A stretch of DNA of 27,551 nucleotides from Bacillota bacterium (GCA_003444595.1 DLUO01000072.1:1-27551), one strand, 5' to 3'; shown: positions 11,440 through 24,892, counted from the stretch's first letter. Notes: generated from the letters alone by a model not told the origin. A program made the numbers and translations.

Positions 11440-11859
11440 TTGATGTGGAAGGAGAAGTATAGGATTGGTGTGAAAAGGATCGATGAGCAGCACGAAGAGC
11501 TCTTTCGCAGGGTAGAGAGCTTCTTAAAGGCTCTCCGGCAGGAGGGGGCCTGGAAAGAAAAGCTGGCCAAGGTTAAAGAGACCCTGGATTTTATGGGCTC
11601 GTACGTGGTAACCCATTTTGCCGATGAAGAGCAGTATCAAAAAGAAATCCGCTTTTCAGGTTACGAAAAACATCGCCAAGTCCATGAAAAATTTAAAGCA
11701 GAGGTAGAAAATTATGTGGAGAAATTCTCCAAAGAAGGCTTTGACGAGGATCTGGTCCAAGAATTTGGCGGCAAACTCATGGCCTGGTTGATCAATCACG
11801 TGGCCGGCGCAGATCAACAAATCGGCCAATATGCGGCAAAGATGGCAGGTGAAGTGTAA
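11440..11859 (+). CDS. Single-domain bacteriohemerythrin
   Basis: W...Y.IGV..ID.QH, HF.DEE, H.x.x.H, WL..H....D di-iron ligand set is complete. Confidence 0.92.
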   Translation: MMWKEKYRIGVKRIDEQHEELFRRVESFLKALRQEGAWKEKLAKVKETLDFMGSYVVTHFADEEQYQKEIRFSGYEKHRQVHEKFKAEVENYVEKFSKEGFDEDLVQEFGGKLMAWLINHVAGADQQIGQYAAKMAGEV

Positions 11860-12332
11860 TGAAAGCAGAGTATATTAACCCTTTTTACAAGGCGGCTCAG
11901 GATGTTTTTGAGCGAATGCTGGATCTCAGTACAGAAAGGATCAATTTAGGTGTTGTTGAGGAGATGGTGACAGGAAAGGAGGCAAATGTTATCATCGGGA
12001 TGACCGGCGATCTTGCCGGGACGGTTTTGTTTAGCTTCCCTAAAAAGATGACCTTTGAGATGGTAAAGATTATGTCGGGTCTGGAGGTGGACAAACTGGA
12101 CAGCTTCGTAACCTCCGCCCTCGGCGAGGTCGCCAATATTATCAGCGGCAATGCGGCTACTTATCTCTCCTTGGAGGAGTACAACTGCGATATTGTGCCG
12201 CCCCAGATCATTATTGGCACCAATAAATCAATCTCTTTGGCTACGGATAAAGCTTTATTTCTCACCCTCAGGACCGAGATCGGGGAGTTTGACATCAATT
12301 TATCTATTAAAGAACGTTCAAACAGGCAATAA
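11859..12332 (+). CDS. cheX: Chemotaxis phosphatase CheX
   Basis: EYINPF, IGMTG...G, SALGEVANII.GNA (E-x-x-N), I.PP.II motifs. Its ATG overlaps the hemerythrin stop (TAATG). Confidence 0.9.
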   Translation: MKAEYINPFYKAAQDVFERMLDLSTERINLGVVEEMVTGKEANVIIGMTGDLAGTVLFSFPKKMTFEMVKIMSGLEVDKLDSFVTSALGEVANIISGNAATYLSLEEYNCDIVPPQIIIGTNKSISLATDKALFLTLRTEIGEFDINLSIKERSNRQ

Positions 12333-12661: not shown

Positions 12662-13027
12662 CTAAAACGCCCAACCCCAGTGCTCACCTTCAACTTCAAG
12701 TAAAAATTCCCCATGAATTGTATCGCTGGACTCATACTTTTCTTTAGCTTCCATGTAAAAAGCAACCCACTGCTTATCTATTCCTTCATGAGATGTCATG
12801 AAATGAAAACGGCTTGAATGCAGACCGGCAGAAGAAAAAAAGAAACATTCCGAGTGAGGGCGTAACCCTTCCGAATAAATAGCCTGTGGCCTGGTTGTTT
12901 CAATATTGTCCAGCTGAACAATAATGTTTGGGGCAAAAATTTTTTCTTCAGAGGAAAATTCTAGAATCAAGTAATAAGAGCTGCCCTTTTTATACTTGCT
13001 GAGTTTTGTCTTTTCTCCTATACTGTT
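12662..13027 (-). pseudogene. In-frame continuation of the upstream ORF after a TAA; probable decayed exported protein
   Basis: Open frame from 13027 through 12662, with 19 extra codons upstream of the ORF-track TTG at 12970. No RBS for an independent start. Confidence 0.5.
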
Positions 13028-13468
13028 TTATTCTGCATAAAGCTTATTAACAGAGTACTTTTCCTCTTGAAAACCCGCTTCTTTTATTCTTTGTTTCATT
13101 CCTTCCAGGTCGCGGGCTTCCAGCGTATTACTAATTGTGTCTGTTGTTTCTTTTTTCATAAATTGGCAACCAGTAGAAAGGGGAACTATAATTAATGCAG
13201 AAGCAATGGCTAAAAGGATAAGAGTGATAGTTTTGTTCAGTTTCTTGCTTCTAGCACTCTTAAACCACCCACTAAACTGCAATATATTTCTATAAACTAC
13301 AAATACAAATATAATGTTTGCAATCCCAAGCATCCAGGCGTAATCTAATGCTTCTTTGCCAGTAATTTTAAAAATCCAAGTTTCCAAATTAATTAGTAAA
13401 ACTGAGCCTATTGTAATGATAAATAAAATTCTGACAAACTCTAAAATAAAAAAAACAATAGTTGACAT
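13028..13468 (-). CDS. Small membrane protein fused to a hydrophilic tail (probable chimera or pseudogene)
   Basis: GGAGTG RBS. Three hydrophobic helices (YRN.LQFSGW motif), then LSTGC and a charged tail ending in TAA. Confidence 0.6.
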   Translation of the reverse strand: MSTIVFFILEFVRILFIITIGSVLLINLETWIFKITGKEALDYAWMLGIANIIFVFVVYRNILQFSGWFKSARSKKLNKTITLILLAIASALIIVPLSTGCQFMKKETTDTISNTLEARDLEGMKQRIKEAGFQEEKYSVNKLYAE

Positions 13469-13682: not shown

Positions 13683-15215
13683 CTATATCCAGTTGCACTG
13701 TAAACCTTCTCTAATTATTTCTCTTGCCGAGATCTTTTCTCCTGTTTTTGCCTCTATCAAATTAGATAATATTTGCAAACCCTGGGGACTTTCGAGCAGG
13801 GCAAAAGAAGTAAAGAGACATAGCCCAAGGTTGGTGGAGGCGATCGTGTATGCGGACAGATAGTCCAGGTCGCTAATGTCTTCCAAGCCCTCTTCCCTAT
13901 AAGGCAGGCGGATGACAAACGCGGGAGCTTCCTTCTCCGAGGGGCGGGTTACCAGGGGCTGTAGCGCCGGATCGTCCGCAAAAAGAGCAGCTAACCCTGC
14001 TGTCATGCTGCCCAAAGCCCTTCCCCGCAACGAAAGCCTTTCCACCTCCTCCGCCATATGCTCGATTGCAGAGAGTTGCCAAGGCGTCCCCTCTGCCTGA
14101 AACAACATCTTGCAGCTGGCAATAAACTCTATGGGATCCAGGCCGAACTCAAAACAGCGTCGCGTGATGCGCCGGGCAAAATGCAGGTCATTTATCCCAA
14201 ACATTTCCCGACATGCCGCTATTACTTCATTTTCCATGGGTGAGCTTAATACCTCGCCAGTGTTGGCGGCATGCCTGTTCAGACAACCCACTACACAACC
14301 GGAGGCACAGTTGCGATTCAGGCGAATTGTTTTTTTAGCCCTATTAACACGCTGCTCTTTCTTTTCTTCCCTTTCTTTTACCGTGACGCCATCTATGTTG
14401 ACTCCGGTTTTTTCCCTTTGCGCTTTGCTCTGAAAAGCTTCTTCCGGGTTGTACTCCTGCAGCATTTTCATTAAAGTGATAGAACCGTAAGCGGGAAGCG
14501 CGCCCCCGCAAACAGGATGCTGCACGATGAGCCTGCTCAGCTGCTTGCTGTAGATCGATAACCTATCTGGATCCTGAACATCTGCCGAAAAGTGAGGCTT
14601 TGTGGATATGACCACGGCTTTTAATCCCAGACTCCCAAAAACCTCCCCACCTTTGTCACGGCTTACGGAAAAAACGGGTATGCCCCGGGCAGGATAAGTG
14701 CTGAAAATCCCGGCGAGGGGAAGCAGATGCTCCCCGGCCGGCCCAACTCCTACAATGGCTGAGTCTTTTCCCCATTTTTCCCGCAGAAAGCTGATAGTTT
14801 CACCGACAGGTTTATCCTTCAGCACCGGGAAAATATGCAGATCCACGCCTTCTTCCCGGATGTGTATTACTGCTGTCCGGCCGGGGCTATAGGAACCGGT
14901 GACAACAAGGGCGGACACTCCCTGGGAGGCAAGCTTTTGGGCAAAAGGCCCCGCTGTATTAGCCAAGTGAAGGCCCCTTTCCCGAACTTTTAAACCGGCG
15001 ATAACCAGCCTTCCTGTGGAGGGAACCTTTGTGCCTGACAGCAATCCCGGAGCGAGAACCAGACAATTGCCGCGGCCGCGGCCTGTTTTTGGGACGGTCA
15101 GTGCTCCAATAAGCTGCACAGCCAGACCTCTTCCTACTGAAGAGAGATTCTTAAAGACAAAGGCTTCCTCGCTAATTTTAAATCTATCCAGGTCAACATA
15201 TATAATTTTAGACAA
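13683..15215 (-). CDS. Divergent aldehyde:ferredoxin oxidoreductase-like protein
   Basis: N-domain motifs APGLLSGT..PS.GR, GPAGE, G.V.GS.GLKAVV. Also CASGCVVGC, FGLDPIE and LGLCLF. TTG at 15215 with GGGGAGG RBS overlaps the upstream ATPase stop. Confidence 0.85.
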   Translation of the reverse strand: MSKIIYVDLDRFKISEEAFVFKNLSSVGRGLAVQLIGALTVPKTGRGRGNCLVLAPGLLSGTKVPSTGRLVIAGLKVRERGLHLANTAGPFAQKLASQGVSALVVTGSYSPGRTAVIHIREEGVDLHIFPVLKDKPVGETISFLREKWGKDSAIVGVGPAGEHLLPLAGIFSTYPARGIPVFSVSRDKGGEVFGSLGLKAVVISTKPHFSADVQDPDRLSIYSKQLSRLIVQHPVCGGALPAYGSITLMKMLQEYNPEEAFQSKAQREKTGVNIDGVTVKEREEKKEQRVNRAKKTIRLNRNCASGCVVGCLNRHAANTGEVLSSPMENEVIAACREMFGINDLHFARRITRRCFEFGLDPIEFIASCKMLFQAEGTPWQLSAIEHMAEEVERLSLRGRALGSMTAGLAALFADDPALQPLVTRPSEKEAPAFVIRLPYREEGLEDISDLDYLSAYTIASTNLGLCLFTSFALLESPQGLQILSNLIEAKTGEKISAREIIREGLQCNWI

Positions 15216-16005
15216 AGCTTTGTACCTCCCCAAAAAATTTCATATTTTCCACCAGTTGTCGGGTATAGGCATCGGCTGGAGAATTCAGAACGTGTTCAGT
15301 TACTCCTTCTTCCACAATACGGCCTTGGTACAAAACGTAAACATATGTGCATATTTTTTTGAGAACACTGATCTGATGGGTAATAAATAAGATGCCGAGA
15401 GACGCTTCAGCGTTAATAGCCTGCAGAAGATCCAGAATGGAGTGGGCGCTTTTTGCATCGAGCATGGAGACGCTTTCATCGGCGATCAACAAGCGGGGGC
15501 GGGGGATCAGAGCCCGGGCGATAGCTGCTCTTTGGCGCTGTCCGCCGCTTAGCTCCCCAATTTTTTTATTAAAGGCCCAGCTGGCATAAGGAAGACCCAC
15601 CAGCTCCAGAGCCTCCTGCGGGCTGAACATACCCTGCCGTCTCCTTCTCTGGCACAGGCGCAGCGGTTCGCGCAAAGTCTGCTCCACAGTATAGCTGGGC
15701 TCCAGGGCTGAATAAGGGTCCTGGAAAATATACTGGATATCCGCTGCAAGGGTAAAAGACCGGCGTTGCAGGGGCAAAAGCGGCTTTCCCTCCAGAAAAA
15801 GCTCCCCTCCATCCGGCGTCTCCTGGCCGGTAATTATCCTGGCGAGGGTCGTTTTGCCTGCGCCGCTCTCGCCGAGAAGGCCGACCATGGCCCCCTGTTT
15901 TACTTCCAGGCTGACTTTTCGTAGAACGTGAATTTTCCCTCCGCCCAATATCTCATAGCTTTTCTCCACATTCCGCACGCTCAACAGGGATTTTGCTTCG
16001 CGCAT
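15208..16005 (-). CDS. Opp/Dpp/Nik-type ABC importer ATP-binding subunit (DppF-like)
   Basis: GESGAGKTT Walker A, IFQDPYSAL Q-loop, LSGGQRQR signature, IADES, ITH. Confidence 0.93.
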   Translation of the reverse strand: MREAKSLLSVRNVEKSYEILGGGKIHVLRKVSLEVKQGAMVGLLGESGAGKTTLARIITGQETPDGGELFLEGKPLLPLQRRSFTLAADIQYIFQDPYSALEPSYTVEQTLREPLRLCQRRRRQGMFSPQEALELVGLPYASWAFNKKIGELSGGQRQRAAIARALIPRPRLLIADESVSMLDAKSAHSILDLLQAINAEASLGILFITHQISVLKKICTYVYVLYQGRIVEEGVTEHVLNSPADAYTRQLVENMKFFGEVQSFV

Positions 16006-16700
16006 AACTGTTCCTCCAAAATCAACGCTCTGTCGGAAAAATTGCTAACCAGTCCGAGGTCGTGAGAAACCATGAGGAAAGTAACCCCTTCTTCCTTTCT
16101 TCTCCGTAAAAAATCCAGGATGATCTTCATGGTAACAGCATCAATTCCTGAAGAAGGCTCATCCAGGATATACAGTTCCGGCCTTTTTAAAAAACCCAGC
16201 AGCAGGATTAAACGCTGTTTCATCCCTCCGCTAAGCTGGTAAGGAAAATGCTCCAGAACTTGCGGAGAGAGCTTGAGCTCTTCCATCCAGGCATGCCAAA
16301 TATTTTCCTCCACTGTTTGCAGGCTCCTTTGAACATGACGAAAATGATTCCTCACGGTAAGAGAGGGATTGAGGGCGTTTTGGGCATACTGAGGGAGATA
16401 TGATATACGGCTGTACAGTTCGGGAGCAGGGATGCTGTTTCGATCCCTGCCCAGTATTTCTGCCCGCCGGTAGCTAACCACGCCGGGAAACCGGGGCTGG
16501 AAAAGGGCATTGAGCAGCGTGGTCTTGCCGCAGCCGGTTTGTCCGACGATCCCCAGACACTCCCCCTTTCCCACCTGCATTAGGGGATATTGGAAAACAA
16601 CCGGCAAAGGCGGCTGGGATGAATTCGACGACAGCGGCAACTGTGCCTTTGAAGATCGGTAGCGGACTTTTAAGCCTTCCACGAACAAAATGGGCGTCAT
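15981..16700 (-). CDS. Opp/Dpp/Nik-type ABC importer ATP-binding subunit (DppD-like)
   Basis: GQTGCGKTT, PYQLSGGMKQR, ILDEPSSGID, VSHDL. Confidence 0.93.
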   Translation of the reverse strand: MTPILFVEGLKVRYRSSKAQLPLSSNSSQPPLPVVFQYPLMQVGKGECLGIVGQTGCGKTTLLNALFQPRFPGVVSYRRAEILGRDRNSIPAPELYSRISYLPQYAQNALNPSLTVRNHFRHVQRSLQTVEENIWHAWMEELKLSPQVLEHFPYQLSGGMKQRLILLLGFLKRPELYILDEPSSGIDAVTMKIILDFLRRRKEEGVTFLMVSHDLGLVSNFSDRALILEEQLCAKQNPC

Positions 16701-16706
16701 CTTTGC

Positions 16707-17525
16707 TTACTCGCTCCTCTCAGCACTTTCACTTTCCTCATCAAAATCAAAGGTAAGCAGAGCCAAGGCCAGCACAAAAAGAACCAAGCATAAAATAGGG
16801 GGGAGTAGCCACCAAAGGTAGGTATGGTCCCAGAAGATACCCTCATAATCGAGAGCGGCCCTTATAGTGCGTCCCCAGGATTTAAGGGCCGGATCTCCAA
16901 TGCCCAGGAAAGAGAGCGTGGCTTCATATACCGCCGCCCTGCCGCACTGCTGAATAAAAAGGGTCGTTACGGCCGGATAAAAATACGGCCACATTTTCCT
17001 GCCCACATCTAGGAGATTTCCTTTTAATAATAGAGTGTACTGCACCGTATCCTGATTGATAATTACCATCGCTTTCCCTCTCAAGATACGGGTTATCCGG
17101 CTCCAGGAAAAAAAGATCATCACCATAACCACATCGGCTACTTTTGGTCCCGCAAAAGCGGCAAAGAGCATTATGACAATGATCTCCGGCACAATGATAA
17201 ATATTTCCGTGACACGCATTATAAAGCGGTCCACCCAGTGACGGAAAAAAGCACAGCTAACTGCCAGCGCTGTCCCAATCAAAGTGGAACAAAAAGAAAC
17301 AATAAGCGCGATGCTAATGGTGACCCTGAAACCGGCCAACAGGGCGGAAAAAATATCCTGCCCCATCTTGTTCGTACCCAACAGGTGCTTACCCCCAGGG
17401 GGCAGCAGCGCCGGAAAAGAAAAATCATCGGGGTGAAAGGGCGCTAGAGCTGGATATGCTATCCCCAGCACCACCATGATGAGAAGAACAAGCAGGGCTG
17501 CTTTTTTGACAGTTGCATTTCTCAT
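16707..17525 (-). CDS. ABC importer permease (DppC-like)
   Basis: PPGGKHLLGT..MGQDIFS, LSFLG.G....SWG, WW..PP motifs. ATGA overlap with the upstream permease. Confidence 0.92.
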   Translation of the reverse strand: MRNATVKKAALLVLLIMVVLGIAYPALAPFHPDDFSFPALLPPGGKHLLGTNKMGQDIFSALLAGFRVTISIALIVSFCSTLIGTALAVSCAFFRHWVDRFIMRVTEIFIIVPEIIVIMLFAAFAGPKVADVVMVMIFFSWSRITRILRGKAMVIINQDTVQYTLLLKGNLLDVGRKMWPYFYPAVTTLFIQQCGRAAVYEATLSFLGIGDPALKSWGRTIRAALDYEGIFWDHTYLWWLLPPILCLVLFVLALALLTFDFDEESESAERSE

Positions 17526-18532
17526 GTCATCTTTGTCAGTCTCGGGTTTAATTTTATAGACAGCAGTTCAAAGAGCATATTAATAGCGATACTATAGATG
17601 CTGGTTACCAGAAAGATACCCTGTATGAGAGGATAGTCCCTTGCTTCCACCGCAACTTTCATTAAAGTGCCCATCCCGGGGTAGGAAAAAATAATCTCCA
17701 CAAAGAGAGCCCCTGCAATAGCATAGAGAAAAGTAATATTCAAGCGACCTAAAATCTCCGGTAAACTGTTCAACAAAATATAATAGAGCCAAATTATTCT
17801 TTCCCTGATACCGAAATAATAAGCAGCTTCAACGTAAGGCTCTCTTTTTATTTTCTGCACAACATTGCGGGTCAGAACAGCCACTGGAGGTACTGTATAA
17901 AGGATCAGAACAGCGATGGGAAGGATGGCATGCCTCAGAAAATGAAGGGCAAACCCCGCATCTGCCGGGGTCATAACCAAAGGATAAGCTCCAAAAGCAG
18001 GGAACCAGCCCAGGTGATGGGCAAATAACATGCGGCAGAGAATGGCCAATAAAAAAACCGGGATCGTTTGCAGGACAAGAAGCAGGGTTAGGAGACCTTT
18101 TTCCAGGTATCCGCCCCCCTTCAGGGCGAGATATGCTCCCAGGGAAACGGCGATAAAAATCGAAATTACAATTGAAGTCAACGATAAAAAGAGGGTCAGG
18201 GTTACCCTGCTCATAACAATCTCCCTGACTGCCAGCCCATAATAAAAGGAATACCCCCAGTCCCCCCTCGCAAGATGTCTCAGATAGCCGGCAAACTGCT
18301 TGATAAGCGGCTGCTCGGGAGCGTAATAATCCGTGAAACGGTTAAAAGTCTCCTTCGGCAGCATGGCATTGAGAACATCAATCTGATCAGCAGAGAAAGA
18401 AAGGGGGCTTCCCGGTATTAAGCGAGGCAGAAGAAACCCCAGAATGATCAGGATACCAAGCTGCATACAGTTTCTGCCCAGAACAGTACACAACCATTTA
18501 AGACTTGGTCTTGAGCGAAAAAACAAAGGCAA
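17522..18532 (-). CDS. ABC importer permease (DppB-like)
   Basis: YL..LARGDWG.S, LILP-like helix, EPYVEAA..FG (EAA loop), E.IFSYPG.G, RDYPLIQG. Confidence 0.93.
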   Translation of the reverse strand: MPLFFRSRPSLKWLCTVLGRNCMQLGILIILGFLLPRLIPGSPLSFSADQIDVLNAMLPKETFNRFTDYYAPEQPLIKQFAGYLRHLARGDWGYSFYYGLAVREIVMSRVTLTLFLSLTSIVISIFIAVSLGAYLALKGGGYLEKGLLTLLLVLQTIPVFLLAILCRMLFAHHLGWFPAFGAYPLVMTPADAGFALHFLRHAILPIAVLILYTVPPVAVLTRNVVQKIKREPYVEAAYYFGIRERIIWLYYILLNSLPEILGRLNITFLYAIAGALFVEIIFSYPGMGTLMKVAVEARDYPLIQGIFLVTSIYSIAINMLFELLSIKLNPRLTKMT

Positions 18533-18535
18533 AGC

Positions 18536-20179
18536 CTACCTACCCCAAGTTCCTCTGATATAAACCAGTTTGTTCTGAACGGTGGGAACTGCCCGGGCAA
18601 CGCCGTCCTTTGTAAAAAACCAGCCGTTTAACGCTTCCGGATTATAAGCAAAGGTTATCTTCCGGTAATAAAGGGTCAGGGTGGGGAGTTCTTCAGCAAT
18701 AATCTCCTGCAGGCGGGCAACCTGCTTGTAACGTTCTTCGTAGTCCATCTCCCTCAACTGCCGGGCAAAAAGATCGTTAAACTCCTCATTAACCCACTGC
18801 CCTCCCCCTTGAGCCGTCACGCTGGGGGTAGATCCCAGGCTTCTTTCATCACTGACAAAACGGGCCAATAAGACAGGGTCCCCGCCGAAAGAACCGTGCC
18901 CGTTCAGGGCTAAAGTAAATTTACCCTCTTTGATTAGCGAGTCCACACTGTTCTGATCCAGTGTTTTGATCTCTAGCGCCACACCAATATCTCCCAGGTA
19001 GCTTTTCACCATTTCCGCTTCATTTACTCTGTCATTTACCACTAAAAGTTCATACTGCATAGCTTTGCCGTTAAATTCACGGATACCGTCGCCGTCTTTG
19101 TCCAGTATCCCGGCCTCATCAAGTAAATTCCTGGCTAGATCCGGGTCGAAATCGTATTCTTTTACCTGAGGATAGTACCATTCCGAATCGGGGTGGATAT
19201 GCCCCGCGTTGCCGGGATCAGCCCCGCCACCGACGGCTTTTTCCACAATTTCATCTCTGTTGATGGCATAATAAAAAGCTTTCCTGACGCTCTTCTCCGT
19301 AAATTCAGGGAAATCGAAATTAAAATACAGGCGATATACCCAGAATCCGGGACCTTCCAAGACGTTGAACCGGCCTTCACTCTTCAGGCGCATCGCCTCA
19401 CCATAGCCGAGGCGCTGTGCGGCATCCAGATCACCGTCGGCCAAGGCCTGAAGAGGGTCGTTGACTTCTGAAAATATAAGCTTATCGATAACCGGAGCAC
19501 CCAAAAAGTAGTTCGTATTCGCGGCAAAGATATATGTTCCCGCTGTGGGATCATAGTGCTCCAAGGTGAATGGACCGGAACCGATGACCGATTCGGGGGT
19601 ATTAAACTGGCTGGGGTCGGTAACATCCTGCCAGATATGCCGGGGCATTATAGGCACATTTCCGGCGATTTCGCTTAAAAACGGAGCATAAGTATCAACC
19701 AGTTCAATTTTTGCCGTATGCTCGTCCACAACTTCCACGTTTTTTACCATCTCCAGAGAAACCCAGGGATGTGGATGTTCTTGCATATATTCAAAGGAAA
19801 ACTTCACATCTTCGGCAGTAACAGGGGTTCCATCGCTAAAAAAAGCATCTTTAACAAGATAAAAGGTCCAACTTTTGGCATCATCAGCCAGCTCCCAGCG
19901 CTCTGCAAGCAAGGGCACCAGGCCTTTTTCGTCTTTCCAGGTCAGAGTATCGAACAGAAAACTGGTTAACAGATACCCACGACCCCGGGACGAGACCGTA
20001 TAGACGGAGGGAAAACCAAGATTCTGTTCATCGAGACGCAACACCCTTTCTCCCCTTGTGTCATCCCCGGAAGCTTCCTCCGCCGGCCCGGGGGCAGACG
20101 TTTTCTGTTCTGCACACCCCCCTAACACCAGCATGAAAAGTAAAAAAAACGACAGTAGAAGTAACAAGCTTTTTCTCAC
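18536..20179 (-). CDS. Family-5 (OppA/DppA/NikA-like) substrate-binding lipoprotein
   Basis: LGGC lipobox after a hydrophobic signal. LFDTL, PLLAERW, FSDGTPVTAEDVKFS, IGSGPF, VRKA..YAINR motifs. GTG at 20179 with GGAGG RBS. Confidence 0.95.
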   Translation of the reverse strand: MRKSLLLLLSFFLLFMLVLGGCAEQKTSAPGPAEEASGDDTRGERVLRLDEQNLGFPSVYTVSSRGRGYLLTSFLFDTLTWKDEKGLVPLLAERWELADDAKSWTFYLVKDAFFSDGTPVTAEDVKFSFEYMQEHPHPWVSLEMVKNVEVVDEHTAKIELVDTYAPFLSEIAGNVPIMPRHIWQDVTDPSQFNTPESVIGSGPFTLEHYDPTAGTYIFAANTNYFLGAPVIDKLIFSEVNDPLQALADGDLDAAQRLGYGEAMRLKSEGRFNVLEGPGFWVYRLYFNFDFPEFTEKSVRKAFYYAINRDEIVEKAVGGGADPGNAGHIHPDSEWYYPQVKEYDFDPDLARNLLDEAGILDKDGDGIREFNGKAMQYELLVVNDRVNEAEMVKSYLGDIGVALEIKTLDQNSVDSLIKEGKFTLALNGHGSFGGDPVLLARFVSDERSLGSTPSVTAQGGGQWVNEEFNDLFARQLREMDYEERYKQVARLQEIIAEELPTLTLYYRKITFAYNPEALNGWFFTKDGVARAVPTVQNKLVYIRGTWGR

Positions 20180-20320
20180 TTCTTCTCCTCCCGCCAATTT
20201 CTTTAGTGTGTTTAGCTAAATACAGTAGCCTGCTACGAAATCCATTATTCCATTTGCTCTCTTCCTTGTCCAATACAATCTATCTATAGTTAATTTAAAT
20301 AGTATTAAAGATAACTATGG

Positions 20321-20345
20321 AAAAAGAAAATCCCCCATACAGGGG
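20321..20345 (-). terminator. Weak terminator-like hairpin upstream of the ABC importer operon
   Basis: Minus strand CCCC-TGTAT-GGGG followed by GATTTTCTTTTT. The stem is short. Confidence 0.35.
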
Positions 20346-20476: not shown

Positions 20477-20926
20477 TTATTGGTCCGGATTGGCGTAACA
20501 GTATAGACAACCGCTTTTACAGGTCATAGCGTACCAGCCCAGATCAATTGAAGAGGTGCATCCGCACAGCTCTCTCTGATTTTTGGCTTTGGCGGTGGTA
20601 CACTGTTCTTTTTGCGGGTGCAGCCTGCTGAGCAGCTCTCCATCGATACACCTGCTCACCGGCGCGCCGGGTATGCAGCAGGCATGAACAACCTCCTGGC
20701 CGGACGACTTCTTTAGCATGTTCAGGATCTCCAGCTGCATTTCAGTTGAATATGGCAGCAGGATAAATCCGTGCCTGGCAAGCCTTTGGACAACCTTGGG
20801 GTAGGGTGAGCAAAAACTTGTTGAGAAATTGCGGATGCCGTATCTGCAAGACAACTGTACAATCTCCATAGCCCGTTCCTGATTATCGATTACTTTGCCG
20901 TTTTCTAAGCCTGGAAAGATAGTAAA
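20477..20926 (-). pseudogene. 5'-truncated DUF1848-family (Fe-S, radical-SAM-like) gene
   Basis: CID..L, QRELCGC..SIDLG.Y..C..GCLYCYANP C-terminal motifs. The frame is closed by TGA just above 20926 and the N-terminal half is missing. Confidence 0.8.
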
Positions 20927-21293: not shown

Positions 21294-23018
21294 TTGAAGC
21301 TGTTTCGCTACCTAAAACCCTTTAGATTGCCTATTTGTGCTACTCTGATCCTGGTCATGATACGTGCGCTGGCTGACCTCTACCTTCCCACGCTATCAGC
21401 CGATATGGTTAACGTAGGCATAGTAAACAGAGATATTCAGTATATTTGGCATGTTGGCATCCGCATGCTGGTATTTGCAGCAGCCGGGGCTTCAGCATTC
21501 ATCCTGTCCGGCTATCTCTCTTCTAGGACTGCCGCAGGATTTGCCAGGCTTCTGCGTGAAAAGGTTTTTTCTCGCGTGGAGAGTTTTTCGCTGCACGAGT
21601 TTAACCGCTTCGGCACCGCTTCCCTTATTAACCGCACGACGAATGATATCACCCAGCTTCAAAACGTTTTATTATTTGGAATGCGCATGATAGTTATGGC
21701 ACCCATGTTAAGCATCGGCAGCTTATTTTTAGCCTTTTCCATAGAACCTGTTCTGGCACGGACCTTCGTTGCGGTCATTCCGGTGCTGTTTGCCATTATC
21801 TTCATTACCATGAGAAAAGGGGTTCCTCTTTTTCAAGCCATGCAGGTTAAACTGGACAATTTGAACCTTATAATGCGGGAGAGGCTGACCGGGATAAGGG
21901 TTGTCCGGGCCTTTAACCGAGATGACTACGAAAAACAGCGTTTTCAGGATGCCAACAGGGATTACACCGCTACAGCGATCCGCGTTAACCGCATTATGGG
22001 AGCGATGATGCCCTTAATGGCCCTGGTTATGAATTTAACCATTGTGGGTATTGTATGGTTTGCAGGTATCCGTATCGATCTTGGTTTTACAGACGTGGGC
22101 AATTTGATGGCGTTTATCCAATATGCCATGCACATTATGTTCTCCTTTGTAGCGATATCCAGAATTTTCGCGGCTATCCCACGTGCCACTGCTTCAGCGG
22201 CAAGAGTTAATGAAATTCTCGATACTGCTGTCGAGATCAGAGATCCGGAAAATGCTAAAAAGACGAAAGGTAAAGGCGGCTCCGTGGAGTTCAGGGATGT
22301 CACCTTCAGTTATCCCGGAGCGGAACACTCGGCTCTCAGCGGCATTTCTTTCATGGCCAGGCCAGGCAAGGTTACGGGAATCATCGGCAGTACGGGTTCG
22401 GGAAAATCCACCCTCGCTAGCCTGATACTGCGTTTTTATGATGTAGACAGCGGCAGCATACTTGTAGATGGCGTTGACGTGCGGGAGATGACACAGGAAA
22501 GCCTGCGCAGCAAAATTGGCTTCGTGCCCCAAAATGCAGTTCTCTTTTCCGGTTCTGTGCTGGAAAACATCCGCTTCGGCCGGGAAGATGCTGAGGAAAA
22601 AGATATCGTGAGAGCAGCCGAGACTGCACAGGCGGCAAGCTTTATCCTGGATATGAAAGAAGGCTTCTCTTCCATGATTGCCCAAGGAGGCCGAAATATT
22701 TCAGGAGGGCAGAAACAGCGTATATCCATAGCCAGAGCAATTGTTAGAAGAGCAAAAATTTATATATTTGATGACTGTTTTTCAGCCCTCGATTACAAAA
22801 CAGAGGCAAGGCTCCGCTCTGCGCTTTTCAAGGAAACAAAAGATTCGACCGTAATTATTATCTCGCAGAGGGTCAGTACGGTTAAGGAGGCCGACCAGAT
22901 TATTGTCCTGGAAGAAGGAAAAATTGCCGGTATCGGCACCCATGAAGAGTTGCTGAATGACTGTGCTATTTACCGGGAGATTGTTTCTTCGCAGTTTTCA
23001 GAGGAGGGGATCGCTTGA
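21294..23018 (+). CDS. Heterodimeric type IV ABC exporter subunit A (degenerate NBD)
   Basis: 6-TM domain, GSTGSGKST, ISGGQKQR, FDDCFSALD (no catalytic Glu), SQR in place of the H-switch; TM287/288- and EfrAB-like. Confidence 0.95.
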   Translation: MKLFRYLKPFRLPICATLILVMIRALADLYLPTLSADMVNVGIVNRDIQYIWHVGIRMLVFAAAGASAFILSGYLSSRTAAGFARLLREKVFSRVESFSLHEFNRFGTASLINRTTNDITQLQNVLLFGMRMIVMAPMLSIGSLFLAFSIEPVLARTFVAVIPVLFAIIFITMRKGVPLFQAMQVKLDNLNLIMRERLTGIRVVRAFNRDDYEKQRFQDANRDYTATAIRVNRIMGAMMPLMALVMNLTIVGIVWFAGIRIDLGFTDVGNLMAFIQYAMHIMFSFVAISRIFAAIPRATASAARVNEILDTAVEIRDPENAKKTKGKGGSVEFRDVTFSYPGAEHSALSGISFMARPGKVTGIIGSTGSGKSTLASLILRFYDVDSGSILVDGVDVREMTQESLRSKIGFVPQNAVLFSGSVLENIRFGREDAEEKDIVRAAETAQAASFILDMKEGFSSMIAQGGRNISGGQKQRISIARAIVRRAKIYIFDDCFSALDYKTEARLRSALFKETKDSTVIIISQRVSTVKEADQIIVLEEGKIAGIGTHEELLNDCAIYREIVSSQFSEEGIA

Positions 23019-24892
23019 GCACCGAACACAGACATAGTATTCCTCCATTGGGCCCGACAAGAGGCAGACGGATAAAAGGGTTGTCCATGCCCTCTGAAAA
23101 AGCAAAAAATTTTAAGGGAACCCTCATCAGGCTGCTGGGGTATTTAAGGCCATACCGGTTTTGGCTGCTGGTTGTTTTAGCAGCAGCTGTTGGGGGAGCG
23201 GTTTTTAATATCATCAGCCCGAAAATTCTGGGGGAGGCTACGACAATTATATTTGAAGGAGTAATGAACAAACTAAGGGGAGTTCCGGGTGCCGGCATCG
23301 ATTTTGAGCGGATCGCGTCGATCCTTCTTTTACTCGTTATGCTATACATTTTAAGCGCGGTATTTACTTACCTGGAACACTATATCATGGCTGGTGTAGC
23401 CCAAAAAACGGTATATAACCTCCGTGAAGAGGTCAGCGCGAAACTCTCCCGCTTACCGTTAAAGTATTTTGATTCTCACGGCCATGGAGAGATTCTAAGC
23501 CGGGTCACAAATGATATAGACCTTATCGGCACCACCTTACAGCAGAGCCTGATGCTACTGATAACATCGCTGGTCACCGTTTCTGGGATATTGGTGATGA
23601 TGCTGACCATAAGCCCGTGGATGACAGTGATTGCCCTTGTAACGCTTCCTCTATCTTATGTGGTAACAGTCAAGATCGCTGCCTATGCGCAGAAGAACTT
23701 TGCCGCGCAGCAGAAAGAGCTCGGCAGACTTAACAGCTATATAGAAGAAACTTACAGCGGCCACATGATCGTCAAGGCCTTCGGCAATGAAGAGAAAGCA
23801 ATCCGGCGTTTTAATATGATAAACGAGAAATTGTATGAATCAAGCTGGCGCGCGCAATTTATCTCCAGTATAATCATGCCGCTGATCGGAATTATAAATA
23901 ACTTCGGTTACGTGCTGGTCTGCATCGTGGGAAGTATTTTGGTCGCTCAGGGCAGGATCCCTATCGGAAATTTGCAGGCTTTTATCCAGTACTCCAAACA
24001 GCTTACCCATCCCATCGTCAATTTCGCCAGCATAGCCAACATTATCCAGTCTACTATAGCAGCTGCTGAGCGCGTTTTTGAGCTTCTGGACGAAGCTGAG
24101 GAGATCCCGGACAGCGCTGAAGCTCTGTCTGCTTTTTCTCCGCGCGGTGACGTCAGGTTCAATAACGTCAGGTTTGGTTACAGTGAAGAAAAAATAATTA
24201 TAAACAAGATGAATATCGATGTGAAGGCTGGACAGACGGTTGCCATTGTAGGTCCCACCGGCGCGGGTAAAACGACACTAGTCAACCTGTTGATGCGTTT
24301 TTACGAGGTTAACGATGGCAAAATCACCATTGACGGCCTGGATATCAGGGATATAAGGCGCGGCACGCTGCGCTCTGTTTTCGGCATGGTCCTGCAGGAT
24401 ACCTGGCTTTTTAAGGGCACCATTAAGGATAACATTGCCTACGGAAGGATAGGGGCCAGCGAAGATGAGATCGTCAGCGCAGCAAAAGCGGCCTATGCCG
24501 ATCGTTTTATCCGTACCCTTCCTGACGGTTATGATACCGTTCTAAATGAAGAGGCGTCAAATATTTCCCAGGGGCAGAAACAACTGCTCACCATCGCGCG
24601 CGCTATATTGGCCGATCCGGCCATCCTGATCCTGGATGAAGCCACCAGCAGCGTCGATACACGCACAGAGCTGCTCATCCAGAGAGCCATGGCCGACTTG
24701 ATGAAAAGCCGGACCAGCTTTGTTATTGCTCATAGGCTATCTACCATACACAACGCGGATAAAATTTTGGTCATGAATGAAGGGGAGGTGGTGGAGAAGG
24801 GCACGCATAGCCAGCTGCTGGCCATGGAAGGTTTCTACAAGGAGCTGTATGAAAGCCAGTTCGCAGAAAAGCCCTCCTTCAAGGCAGGATAA
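23015..24892 (+). CDS. Heterodimeric type IV ABC exporter subunit B (consensus catalytic residues)
   Basis: GPTGAGKTT, ISQGQKQL, LDEATSSVD, AHRL. 4-nt overlap (TTGA) with subunit A. Confidence 0.95.
   Translation: MSTEHRHSIPPLGPTRGRRIKGLSMPSEKAKNFKGTLIRLLGYLRPYRFWLLVVLAAAVGGAVFNIISPKILGEATTIIFEGVMNKLRGVPGAGIDFERIASILLLLVMLYILSAVFTYLEHYIMAGVAQKTVYNLREEVSAKLSRLPLKYFDSHGHGEILSRVTNDIDLIGTTLQQSLMLLITSLVTVSGILVMMLTISPWMTVIALVTLPLSYVVTVKIAAYAQKNFAAQQKELGRLNSYIEETYSGHMIVKAFGNEEKAIRRFNMINEKLYESSWRAQFISSIIMPLIGIINNFGYVLVCIVGSILVAQGRIPIGNLQAFIQYSKQLTHPIVNFASIANIIQSTIAAAERVFELLDEAEEIPDSAEALSAFSPRGDVRFNNVRFGYSEEKIIINKMNIDVKAGQTVAIVGPTGAGKTTLVNLLMRFYEVNDGKITIDGLDIRDIRRGTLRSVFGMVLQDTWLFKGTIKDNIAYGRIGASEDEIVSAAKAAYADRFIRTLPDGYDTVLNEEASNISQGQKQLLTIARAILADPAILILDEATSSVDTRTELLIQRAMADLMKSRTSFVIAHRLSTIHNADKILVMNEGEVVEKGTHSQLLAMEGFYKELYESQFAEKPSFKAG

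Follow-up and report, generated by a model that had tools for sequence, protein, structure and literature searches.

Gene organization of the locus

Within a 27,551-nucleotide stretch of DNA from a Bacillota bacterium (GCA_003444595.1, DLUO01000072.1:1-27551; hereafter the window), six genes on the minus strand at 13683-20179 encode a family-5 substrate-binding lipoprotein, two permeases, two ATPases and an AOR-like Fe-S protein (Table 1). Consecutive genes overlap or are separated by gaps of up to 6 nt, although the start of the second ATPase is uncertain. The sequence-only reading that prompted this work had described this arrangement, together with an AOR-like protein that has lost several cofactor motifs, and the observation holds. 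The binding protein starts at GTG 20179, and a reading of its signal peptide revealed the lipobox LGGC. The AOR-like gene starts at TTG 15215 behind a GGGGAGG ribosome-binding site and overlaps the stop of the preceding ATPase gene by 8 nt. Upstream of the operon, a promoter-like site (TGGACA-17-AATAAT with TG), which is a consensus match only, follows the terminator-like hairpin of the upstream gene.

Table 1. Coordinates of the features at the locus, with their profile matches.
Position	Strand	Feature	Length	Profile match
20332-20345		Terminator-like hairpin of the upstream gene		
About 20283-20290		CTATAGAT-like word		
20244-20272	-	Promoter-like site		
18536-20179	-	Family-5 substrate-binding lipoprotein	547 aa	SBP_bac_5, 260 bits
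17522-18532	-	ABC permease 1 (NikB/Opp2B-like), exact start uncertain		BPD_transp_1, 97 bits
16707-17525	-	ABC permease 2 (NikC/Opp4C-like), overlapping permease 1 by 4 nt		BPD_transp_1
15981-16700	-	ABC ATPase 1 (NikD-like, short form without the Opp C-terminal extension)		ABC_tran
15208-16005	-	ABC ATPase 2 (NikE-like)		ABC_tran, 108 bits
13683-15215	-	AOR-like Fe-S protein, C-terminally truncated relative to its family	510 aa	AFOR_N, 98 bits (profile positions 2-197 of 199); AFOR_C, positions 4-138 of 385 only
13683-13697	-	Breakpoint at the end of the AOR-like gene		

The importer has the composition and gene order of a family-5 binding-protein-dependent ABC importer (binding protein, two permeases, two short ATPases), and nickel and metallophore importer models give the best NCBIfam scores. 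However, every component scores at about half of the family cut-offs or less: NikA 141 of 393, NikB 108 of 447, NikC 118 of 358, NikD 108 of 319 and NikE 194 of 333 bits, with Opp2B at 161 and Opp4C at 141 bits, each against a cut-off of 350. The NikA, CntA and Opp4A models all score far below their cut-offs for the binding protein. The operon differs further from the NikABCDE, Opp2 and Cnt-type importers in having no NikR, no metallophore synthesis genes, and a sixth, coupled gene of the AOR family. The binding protein is 50-64% identical to its orthologs, being more conserved than any other gene product of the operon.

Rfam scans of the window and 12 related loci found no Moco, cobalamin or other riboswitch upstream of the operons, the only hits being T-boxes, a TPP element and tRNAs elsewhere. 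A Fur-box search allowing up to 3 mismatches and k-mer and dyad counts on 27 upstream regions gave no convincing operator; the only recurrent word was CTATAGAT-like, found upstream of many orthologous operons, which may be part of the promoter. Protein atlas look-ups added nothing beyond AFOR_N for the AOR-like protein and surface-repeat families for the large neighbour.

The AOR-like protein and its family

The AOR-like protein belongs to a family of about 60 relatives of 500-545 aa, found almost only in Bacillota, in Clostridia-type bacteria, which share a motif pattern and 46 invariant residues. On a protein tree they form a single clade with 100% support, on a long branch away from true AORs. 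The structural model of the window's protein (pLDDT 82) has as its best fold match the tungsten aldehyde:ferredoxin oxidoreductase of Pyrococcus furiosus (1aor; Foldseek E 1.5e-24, TM 0.73), in agreement with a predicted three-domain AOR fold, although the protein is about 90 residues shorter.

To assess which elements of the tungstopterin site are retained, we aligned the protein with 1aor and true AORs. The motifs CASGCVVGC and LGLC align with Cys288, Cys291, Cys295 and Cys494, the ligands of the 4Fe-4S cluster (C309, C313, C317 and C472 in the numbering of sequence P0001). In 29 of 29 family sequences these four cysteines are kept, as are the equivalents of Arg76, Asn93, Arg182, Glu313 and Thr243, the last as Ser. 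DELGLD reads FEFGLD and DSAGLC reads TNLGLC, so that the GL(C/D) halves of both pterin loops remain while their aspartates do not. Across the family the Asp338 position is never Asp but F, T, S, Y or L, and the Asp489 position is Glu in 16 sequences, Gly in 10 and Thr in the window. EYE(S/T) reads ENEV, with loss of Tyr312 but not of the Glu313 equivalent. The YDPR...GxDH segment, which the sequence-only reading could not find, is missing: the YDPR stretch reads TRPS, Tyr427 is not conserved, and the 27-residue loop that follows, carrying His448 and Tyr452, is deleted. Thus, of the second-shell residues Thr243, Glu313, Tyr427 and His448 (PMC12096430), only the positions of the first two are retained. 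Arg76 and Arg182 are reported to contact phosphate, and Asp338 and Asp489 to anchor the pterin, in the 1995 AOR structure. The family also has invariant motifs of its own (HPVCGGALP, CLNRH and IPEFVKVLYRYF).

The sequence-only reading had allowed that the motif losses might only reflect decay of this copy, for instance by a frameshift near 13690. The orthologs share the losses, which are family traits and not decay, but the suspected damage near 13690 is real. The short C-terminus has two causes: the family as a whole is shorter than AOR, and this copy in addition ends about 35 residues before its relatives, at a sharp homology breakpoint near 13694. In a DNA alignment, homology to the 86%-identical ortholog stops after ...CAGTGCA and is followed by three unrelated codons (NWI), TAG and AT-rich unrelated DNA. 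The breakpoint removed the conserved C-terminal helix in this copy. The missing segment, IPEFVKVLYRYF, which is nearly invariant in all other members, left no trace in any frame downstream, elsewhere in the window or in the genome sequence, which is only 62.5% complete. A truncated protein with 99% identity (P0002), also lacking this segment, occurs on another contig.

Linkage to two importer classes

The gene is almost always encoded beside an importer, in 55 or more of 63 genome loci, and not with ferredoxin or catabolic genes. In 28 loci the order is SBP5-permease-permease-ATPase-ATPase-AOR-like gene, as in the window, and about 27 loci carry instead a Peripla_BP_2/FecCD/ATPase importer; only 2 loci with enough flanking DNA lack an importer. 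The importer type changes at least 6-9 times on the protein tree. Look-ups started from the binding protein ended again in the AOR-like gene in 4 of 7 cases. A FecCD plus AOR-like fusion (P0065) that joins half of each protein on a 3.6-kb contig was treated as a possible chimera and left out.

The FecCD-type importer, absent from the window, resembles the low-affinity molybdate/tungstate type II importer MolABC (HI1470-HI1472) of Haemophilus influenzae in having a Peripla_BP_2 binding protein, a FecCD permease and one ATPase. Among characterised structures its binding protein is closest to MolA (E 2e-25, against 1e-13 or weaker for siderophore, B12 and heme binders). Its nearest structure overall is the uncharacterised 4hn9 (E 4e-97), on which a literature search found nothing.

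Neighbouring genes also point towards Mo/W. An XdhC-family gene, XdhC being a Moco chaperone, lies nearby in 17 loci of both importer types, and an HD domain like that of the DVU_1551 Moco nucleotidyl transferase occurs in 5 loci. Prediction of a complex between an AOR-like protein and its neighbouring XdhC gave no verdict. The importer-less copy at locus L007 lies directly after a DMSOR-type oxidoreductase, and at locus L054 a true AOR lies 3 genes upstream. A sister importer lineage without the AOR-like gene carries DUF4213/DUF364 in its place. DUF364 is known beside Mo/W transporters (PMC2954201; bioRxiv 10.1101/2024.03.05.583561), and in the genome of the window it sits next to ModA on another contig. 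XdhC and DUF364 proteins are, like the AOR-like protein in this view, cytoplasmic partners encoded with Mo/W uptake or insertion genes, but neither is homologous to it and neither lies in this window's operon. An aldehyde dehydrogenase that seemed to replace the AOR-like gene in a sister lineage proved to be ordinary proA, and this idea was dropped.

Distribution of pterin biosynthesis and pterin enzymes

Of 30 host genomes, 21 make their own pterin cofactor, and nearly all of those also have a ModA-type transporter, so the module is not their only Mo/W route. Eight lack MoaA, MoaC and MoeA together; four of these still have XDH, AOR or formate-dehydrogenase-type enzymes, whereas the other four (host genomes G009, G016, G018 and G023) show none of the XDH, DMSOR, AOR, sulfite-oxidase or MOSC families, although G016 has nitrogenase-like genes. 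In three genomes without any known pterin enzyme, an XdhC gene still sits beside the AOR-like gene. We also asked whether genomes with pterin enzymes but no biosynthesis are enriched for this family, and they are not: in a random sample of 80 MoaC-negative genomes of the phylum, 17 have XDH, about 20 have true AORs and only one has this family, which is therefore not the general answer to pterin auxotrophy. Five tested genomes with pterin enzymes but no biosynthesis also lack a close relative of the FecCD-type binding protein.

Possible function of the module

We tentatively propose, with less than even confidence, that the operon is a self-contained uptake-and-handover module for molybdenum or tungsten in some bound form, either a preformed pyranopterin cofactor or another Mo/W complex, and not a nickel or peptide system. 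In this view the lipoprotein would capture the cargo outside the cell, the Nik/Opp-type importer would carry it in, and the AOR-like protein, made by translational coupling with the last ATPase, would take it up in the cytoplasm in what remains of the tungstopterin pocket. This pocket keeps the Fe-S cluster ligands, the phosphate/Mg side of the site, Glu313 and the Thr243 position, but has lost the His448 loop and the pterin-anchoring aspartates (Asp489 mostly), and with these aspartates gone pterin may not bind at all. The protein would act as a holder, a processing or transfer protein, or a specialised end user, and not as an aldehyde oxidoreductase. No family-5 binding protein is known to carry Mo/W, and a pure carrier would have no client in the four hosts without pterin enzymes. 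The anatomy of the operon, the residue pattern, the conserved linkage and the interchangeability of two importer classes are established by the analysis, whereas the Mo/W nature of the cargo, any binding of a W or Mo cofactor and the acceptor role are inferred.

The interpretation offered by the sequence-only reading, of a pseudo-enzyme serving as intracellular binder or carrier for an imported metal-organic compound or cofactor, is thus supported in part. The protein is not a conventional aldehyde oxidoreductase and its linkage to an importer is conserved, and the uptake idea gains independent support from the XdhC, MolA-like, DUF364 and DMSOR/AOR associations, but it remains unproven: no riboswitch was found upstream, most hosts make their own pterin cofactor and have ModA, four hosts have no known client enzyme, and most genomes with pterin enzymes but no pterin biosynthesis lack this family. 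The term pseudo-enzyme is too strong, given that Glu313, the Thr243 position, the Fe-S cysteines and the family-specific invariant motifs argue for a selected activity.

As for the window's own copy, which may be impaired, it is possible though doubtful that the sixth gene is a dead remnant, inactivated by the rearrangement that removed the last 35 codons, and that only the importer may still work. The sharp breakpoint, the near invariance of the missing segment, the absence of a second copy in the genome sequence and of a terminator after the gene favour this reading. On the other hand, the remaining 507 codons are intact, with no stop or frameshift, the protein is 86% identical to a full-length ortholog, the truncated form recurs on another contig, and the genome is incomplete.

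A less likely alternative is that the AOR-like protein is a ferredoxin-linked Fe-S redox enzyme acting on an imported metal chelate unrelated to Mo/W, for instance releasing nickel or iron from an organic chelator or dismantling heme under anoxia. Family-5 and Peripla_BP_2 importers both include known nickel-histidine and heme systems; NikA, CntA and HbpA are among the nearer hits of the window's binding protein, and IsdE and CeuE-type proteins among those of the other class. The minimal module is the importer plus this one protein, it occurs in genomes with no pterin metabolism at all, the Fe-S cysteines are invariant, and exporters (MatE, MFS) that could recycle a chelator are often in the operon. 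However, no Fur box lies upstream of the 27 operons searched, the Nik, Cnt and Opp models score far below their cut-offs, and this reading explains neither the XdhC, DUF364, MolA-like and DMSOR/AOR neighbours nor the invariance of the phosphate/Mg-site residues.

The narrower version of our proposal, in which importers of two unrelated classes salvage preformed Moco, the tungsten cofactor or a nucleotide-bearing form of it, and a degenerate AOR paralog, helped in many genomes by XdhC and by phosphatases that trim the cofactor, receives it and passes it on or uses it itself, is unlikely on present evidence, since most hosts synthesise the cofactor, no Moco riboswitch was found and nearly all genomes with pterin enzymes but no biosynthesis lack the family. 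In its favour stand the four hosts with pterin enzymes but no biosynthesis, the XdhC genes in the three genomes without known pterin enzymes, the His_Phos_1+HD and Y_phosphatase3 genes in the operons, and the loss of the anchoring aspartates and covering loop, which would suit reversible binding. If true, this would be the first bacterial uptake route for this cofactor, no bacterial Moco importer having been found in the literature searched.

Hundreds of prokaryotes carry molybdo- or tungstoenzymes without a pathway for the pterin cofactor, the orphan molybdoproteins of PMC6147048, by an unknown means of obtaining cofactor or metal, and such genomes were common among the gut-type Bacillota examined here. 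The family gives a concrete handle that can be cloned, a small Fe-S protein with a remodelled tungstopterin pocket that is genetically locked to two interchangeable importer classes. Depending on the ligand of either binding protein or the metal and pterin content of the protein, it would represent a new route for Mo/W or cofactor acquisition, a new kind of metal-chelate processing enzyme or a new chemistry for the AOR fold, and the database labels "peptide/nickel transporter", "iron complex transporter" and "aldehyde ferredoxin oxidoreductase" would be corrected.

The importer operon

The six genes of the operon encode, in order, a 547-aa family-5 binding protein, two BPD_transp_1 permeases, two short ABC ATPases and an AOR-like protein. 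The binding-protein gene starts at a GTG behind GGGAGGAG and its product carries a lipoprotein signal ending LGGC, whereas the last gene starts at a TTG behind GGGGAGG, overlaps the stop of the second ATPase by 8 nt and encodes 510 aa, a length identical to that of its 99% twin, protein P0002. A terminator-like hairpin of the upstream gene and a promoter-like site precede the operon. In addition, a CTATAGAT-like word recurs about 100-130 nt before the start codon of the binding-protein gene in many type-A operons, which may be a -10 element or an operator. All importer subunits match nickel, metallophore or oligopeptide models best, but at about half of the curated cut-offs or less, and the system is therefore an importer of the Nik/Opp type rather than NikABCDE.

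Coordinates of the operon, its neighbors and related features (in the window unless another source is named)
Position	Strand	Feature
13683-20179	minus	Six-gene importer operon
20179	minus	GTG start of the binding-protein gene
15215	minus	TTG start of the AOR-like gene
near 13694	minus	Homology breakpoint in the AOR-like gene
about 20283-20290		CTATAGAT-like word
11440-12332		Hemerythrin plus CheX gene pair
12662-13468		Two small ORFs without any family match
20477-20869		ORF matching part of DUF1848
21294-24892		Two adjacent ABC exporter genes
L076, 4456-5330		Hemerythrin plus CheX gene pair in a Tissierellales MAG
Contig C105 of the same genome, about 2.3-18.3 kb		Molybdenum island

Residue pattern of the AOR-like protein

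Pfam finds a complete AFOR_N domain in the AOR-like protein but only the first third of AFOR_C. The best solved relative is P. furiosus AOR (E 1.6e-21), and an AlphaFold model (pLDDT 82) matches the corresponding structure, 1aor, over the whole chain with a TM of 0.73. Residues were mapped using the HMMER alignment to 1aor and a joint alignment with 12 true AORs, and residue roles were assigned from the literature (PMC12096430). In AOR, Arg76 and Arg182 reportedly contact the phosphate, and Asp338 and Asp489 reportedly anchor the pterin, as described with the 1995 structure. The CX3CX3C spacing of the cysteines also occurs in true AORs and so is not special to this family. On the other hand, the family has invariant motifs of its own, which include HPVCGGALP, with an extra cysteine, CLNRH, and IPEFVKVLYRYF at the C-terminus.

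State of the AOR residues in the importer-linked family
AOR residue	State in the family
Cys288, Cys291, Cys295, Cys494	Invariant
Arg76, Asn93, Arg182	Invariant in 29 of 29 sequences (Asn in 26 of 30 in a wider set)
Glu313	Invariant
Thr243	Invariant Ser
Asp338	Never Asp (F, T, S, Y or L)
Asp489	Glu in 16, Gly in 10, Thr in the window
Tyr312, Tyr427	Not kept
His448, Tyr452	Inside a deleted 27-residue loop

Family traits and truncation of the window copy

About 60 proteins of 500-545 aa, 31-47% identical to that of the window, share this pattern and form one clade with full support, on a long branch from true AORs. The motif losses are therefore old and selected. Full-length members occur, for example, in Proteinivorax tanatarense, Natronincola ferrireducens and Clostridium collagenovorans. 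The window copy has a further defect, given that its homology to the 86%-identical ortholog at locus L001 stops abruptly after ...CAGTGCA and is followed by three unrelated codons, a stop and AT-rich DNA. The missing 35 residues include the near-invariant terminal motif, and they were not found elsewhere in the window or in the available genome, which is 62.5% complete. It is possible, although we consider it less likely than not, that this copy is impaired. Two small ORFs of 102 and 146 aa fill the AT-rich stretch that replaced the 3' end of the gene.

Linkage to two importer classes

A scan of one genome per species found 63 loci, all of them in Bacillota except pieces of one probably mis-binned MAG. 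In 28 of these loci, the window included, the same six-gene order is present, and the binding protein is 50-64% identical, against 35-47% for the AOR-like protein. About 27 loci instead have a Peripla_BP_2 binding protein, a FecCD permease and one ATPase beside the gene, the minimal form being a four-gene operon. Only two loci, L007 and L023, have enough flanking DNA and no importer. On the protein tree the importer type changes at least 6-9 times, and no label shuffle reached so few changes, implying that the two importers are interchangeable partners. Of seven look-ups started from the binding protein, four ended in an AOR-like gene (Proteinivorax, Natronincola, a metagenome and locus L081), whereas the other three, all from one lineage, did not. 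One further protein, P0065 (587 aa, from a 3.6-kb metagenome contig), joins the N-terminal half of a FecCD permease to an AOR-like protein lacking its first 160 residues, and is either a real fusion or an assembly or deletion chimera.

Genomic context and the nature of the cargo

An XdhC-family gene lies nearby in 17 loci of both importer types, its best NCBIfam model being "XdhC family aldehyde oxidoreductase maturation factor", with a score below the cut-off. Five loci add a His_Phos_1+HD protein whose HD part resembles the DVU_1551 Moco nucleotidyl transferase, and others add Y_phosphatase3, MatE or MFS exporters. In Anaerovoracaceae and Mogibacterium (loci L043, L044, L049, L053, L054, L037, L039, L034 and L036) we observed a same-strand operon of roughly 12 genes, which encodes His_Phos_1+HD, XdhC, MatE, the AOR-like protein, FecCD, an ATPase, a binding protein, a Big_2 protein, MotA/ExbB, DUF2149, a Big_2/fn3 protein and a surface-repeat protein of 1000-1400 aa, a putative and elaborate capture machine in monoderm bacteria with small genomes.

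The FecCD-type binding protein is nearest to the uncharacterised structure 4hn9, followed by the molybdate/tungstate binder MolA (2e-25; MolBC-A in PMC4031551), far ahead of siderophore, B12 and heme binders. The importer-less locus L007 lies directly after a DMSOR-type oxidoreductase, and locus L054 has a true AOR three genes upstream. The importer lineage without the AOR-like gene has a divergent DUF4213/DUF364 gene, and DUF364 is known beside molybdate and tungstate transporters. In the genome of the window it sits next to ModA on contig C105, within a molybdenum island that holds a formate-dehydrogenase-type gene with an in-frame TGA, ModA, two DUF364 genes, MoeA copies and a second ModA.

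Pterin biosynthesis and pterin enzymes in host genomes

The pterin pathway and the distribution of pterin enzymes cut the other way. In 30 host genomes, MoaA, MoaC and MoeA are all present in most, and all three are missing in eight, two of them isolates. Among these eight, four (genomes G008, G017, G019 and G021) keep XDH, AOR or DMSOR-type enzymes, whereas the other four (G009, G016, G018 and G023) have no XDH, DMSOR, AOR, sulfite-oxidase or MOSC family, although G016 has nitrogenase-like genes. Alitiscatomonas aceti is a host that has XDH but no biosynthesis of the cofactor. ModA-type binders are present in nearly all hosts that make the cofactor and absent from the eight that do not. In some hosts the protein must be the end user of whatever is imported.

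In a random sample of the phylum, 117 of 400 genomes lack MoaC. Of the 80 of those that were tested, 17 have XDH-family genes, about 20 have true AORs (up to 7 copies) and only one has the AOR-like family. Five AOR-rich genomes from that sample (G129, G146, G167, G199 and G228; loci L065-L069), with 5-7 true AOR-family genes each, also lack MoaA and MoeA in our searches, and of those five only one had even a distant match to the FecCD-type binding protein. This is in agreement with the "orphan molybdoprotein" phenomenon (PMC6147048), which seems frequent in gut-type Bacillota. The AOR-like family is therefore not the general solution to pterin auxotrophy.

Interpretation

The convergence of the AOR fold, XdhC, MolA-like binders, DUF364 and pterin-enzyme neighbors makes a Mo/W-related cargo the best-supported idea, albeit a tentative one, in which the AOR-like protein would be the cytoplasmic acceptor. 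The gene order, the residue pattern and the linkage to importers were observed directly in the sequences, whereas the Mo/W nature of the cargo and the acceptor role are inferred from them. A redox enzyme acting on another metal chelate remains a serious rival, even if we regard it as the less likely of the two. Within the Mo/W reading, the cargo may be a whole pterin cofactor, which we consider unlikely on present evidence, or a metal complex.

Other features of the region

A hemerythrin plus CheX gene pair lies next to the importer operon in the window, and the same pair lies next to the DUF364-type sister importer in the Tissierellales MAG (locus L076). Upstream of the operon and transcribed divergently from it are two adjacent ABC exporter genes (ABC_membrane + ABC_tran, 574 and 625 aa), and members of the same cluster lie within 10 kb of the AOR-like gene in four other loci (L011, L048, L057 and L063). 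Finally, a 130-aa ORF matches only the C-terminal half of DUF1848 (profile positions 147-262 of 262) and looks like a gene fragment.
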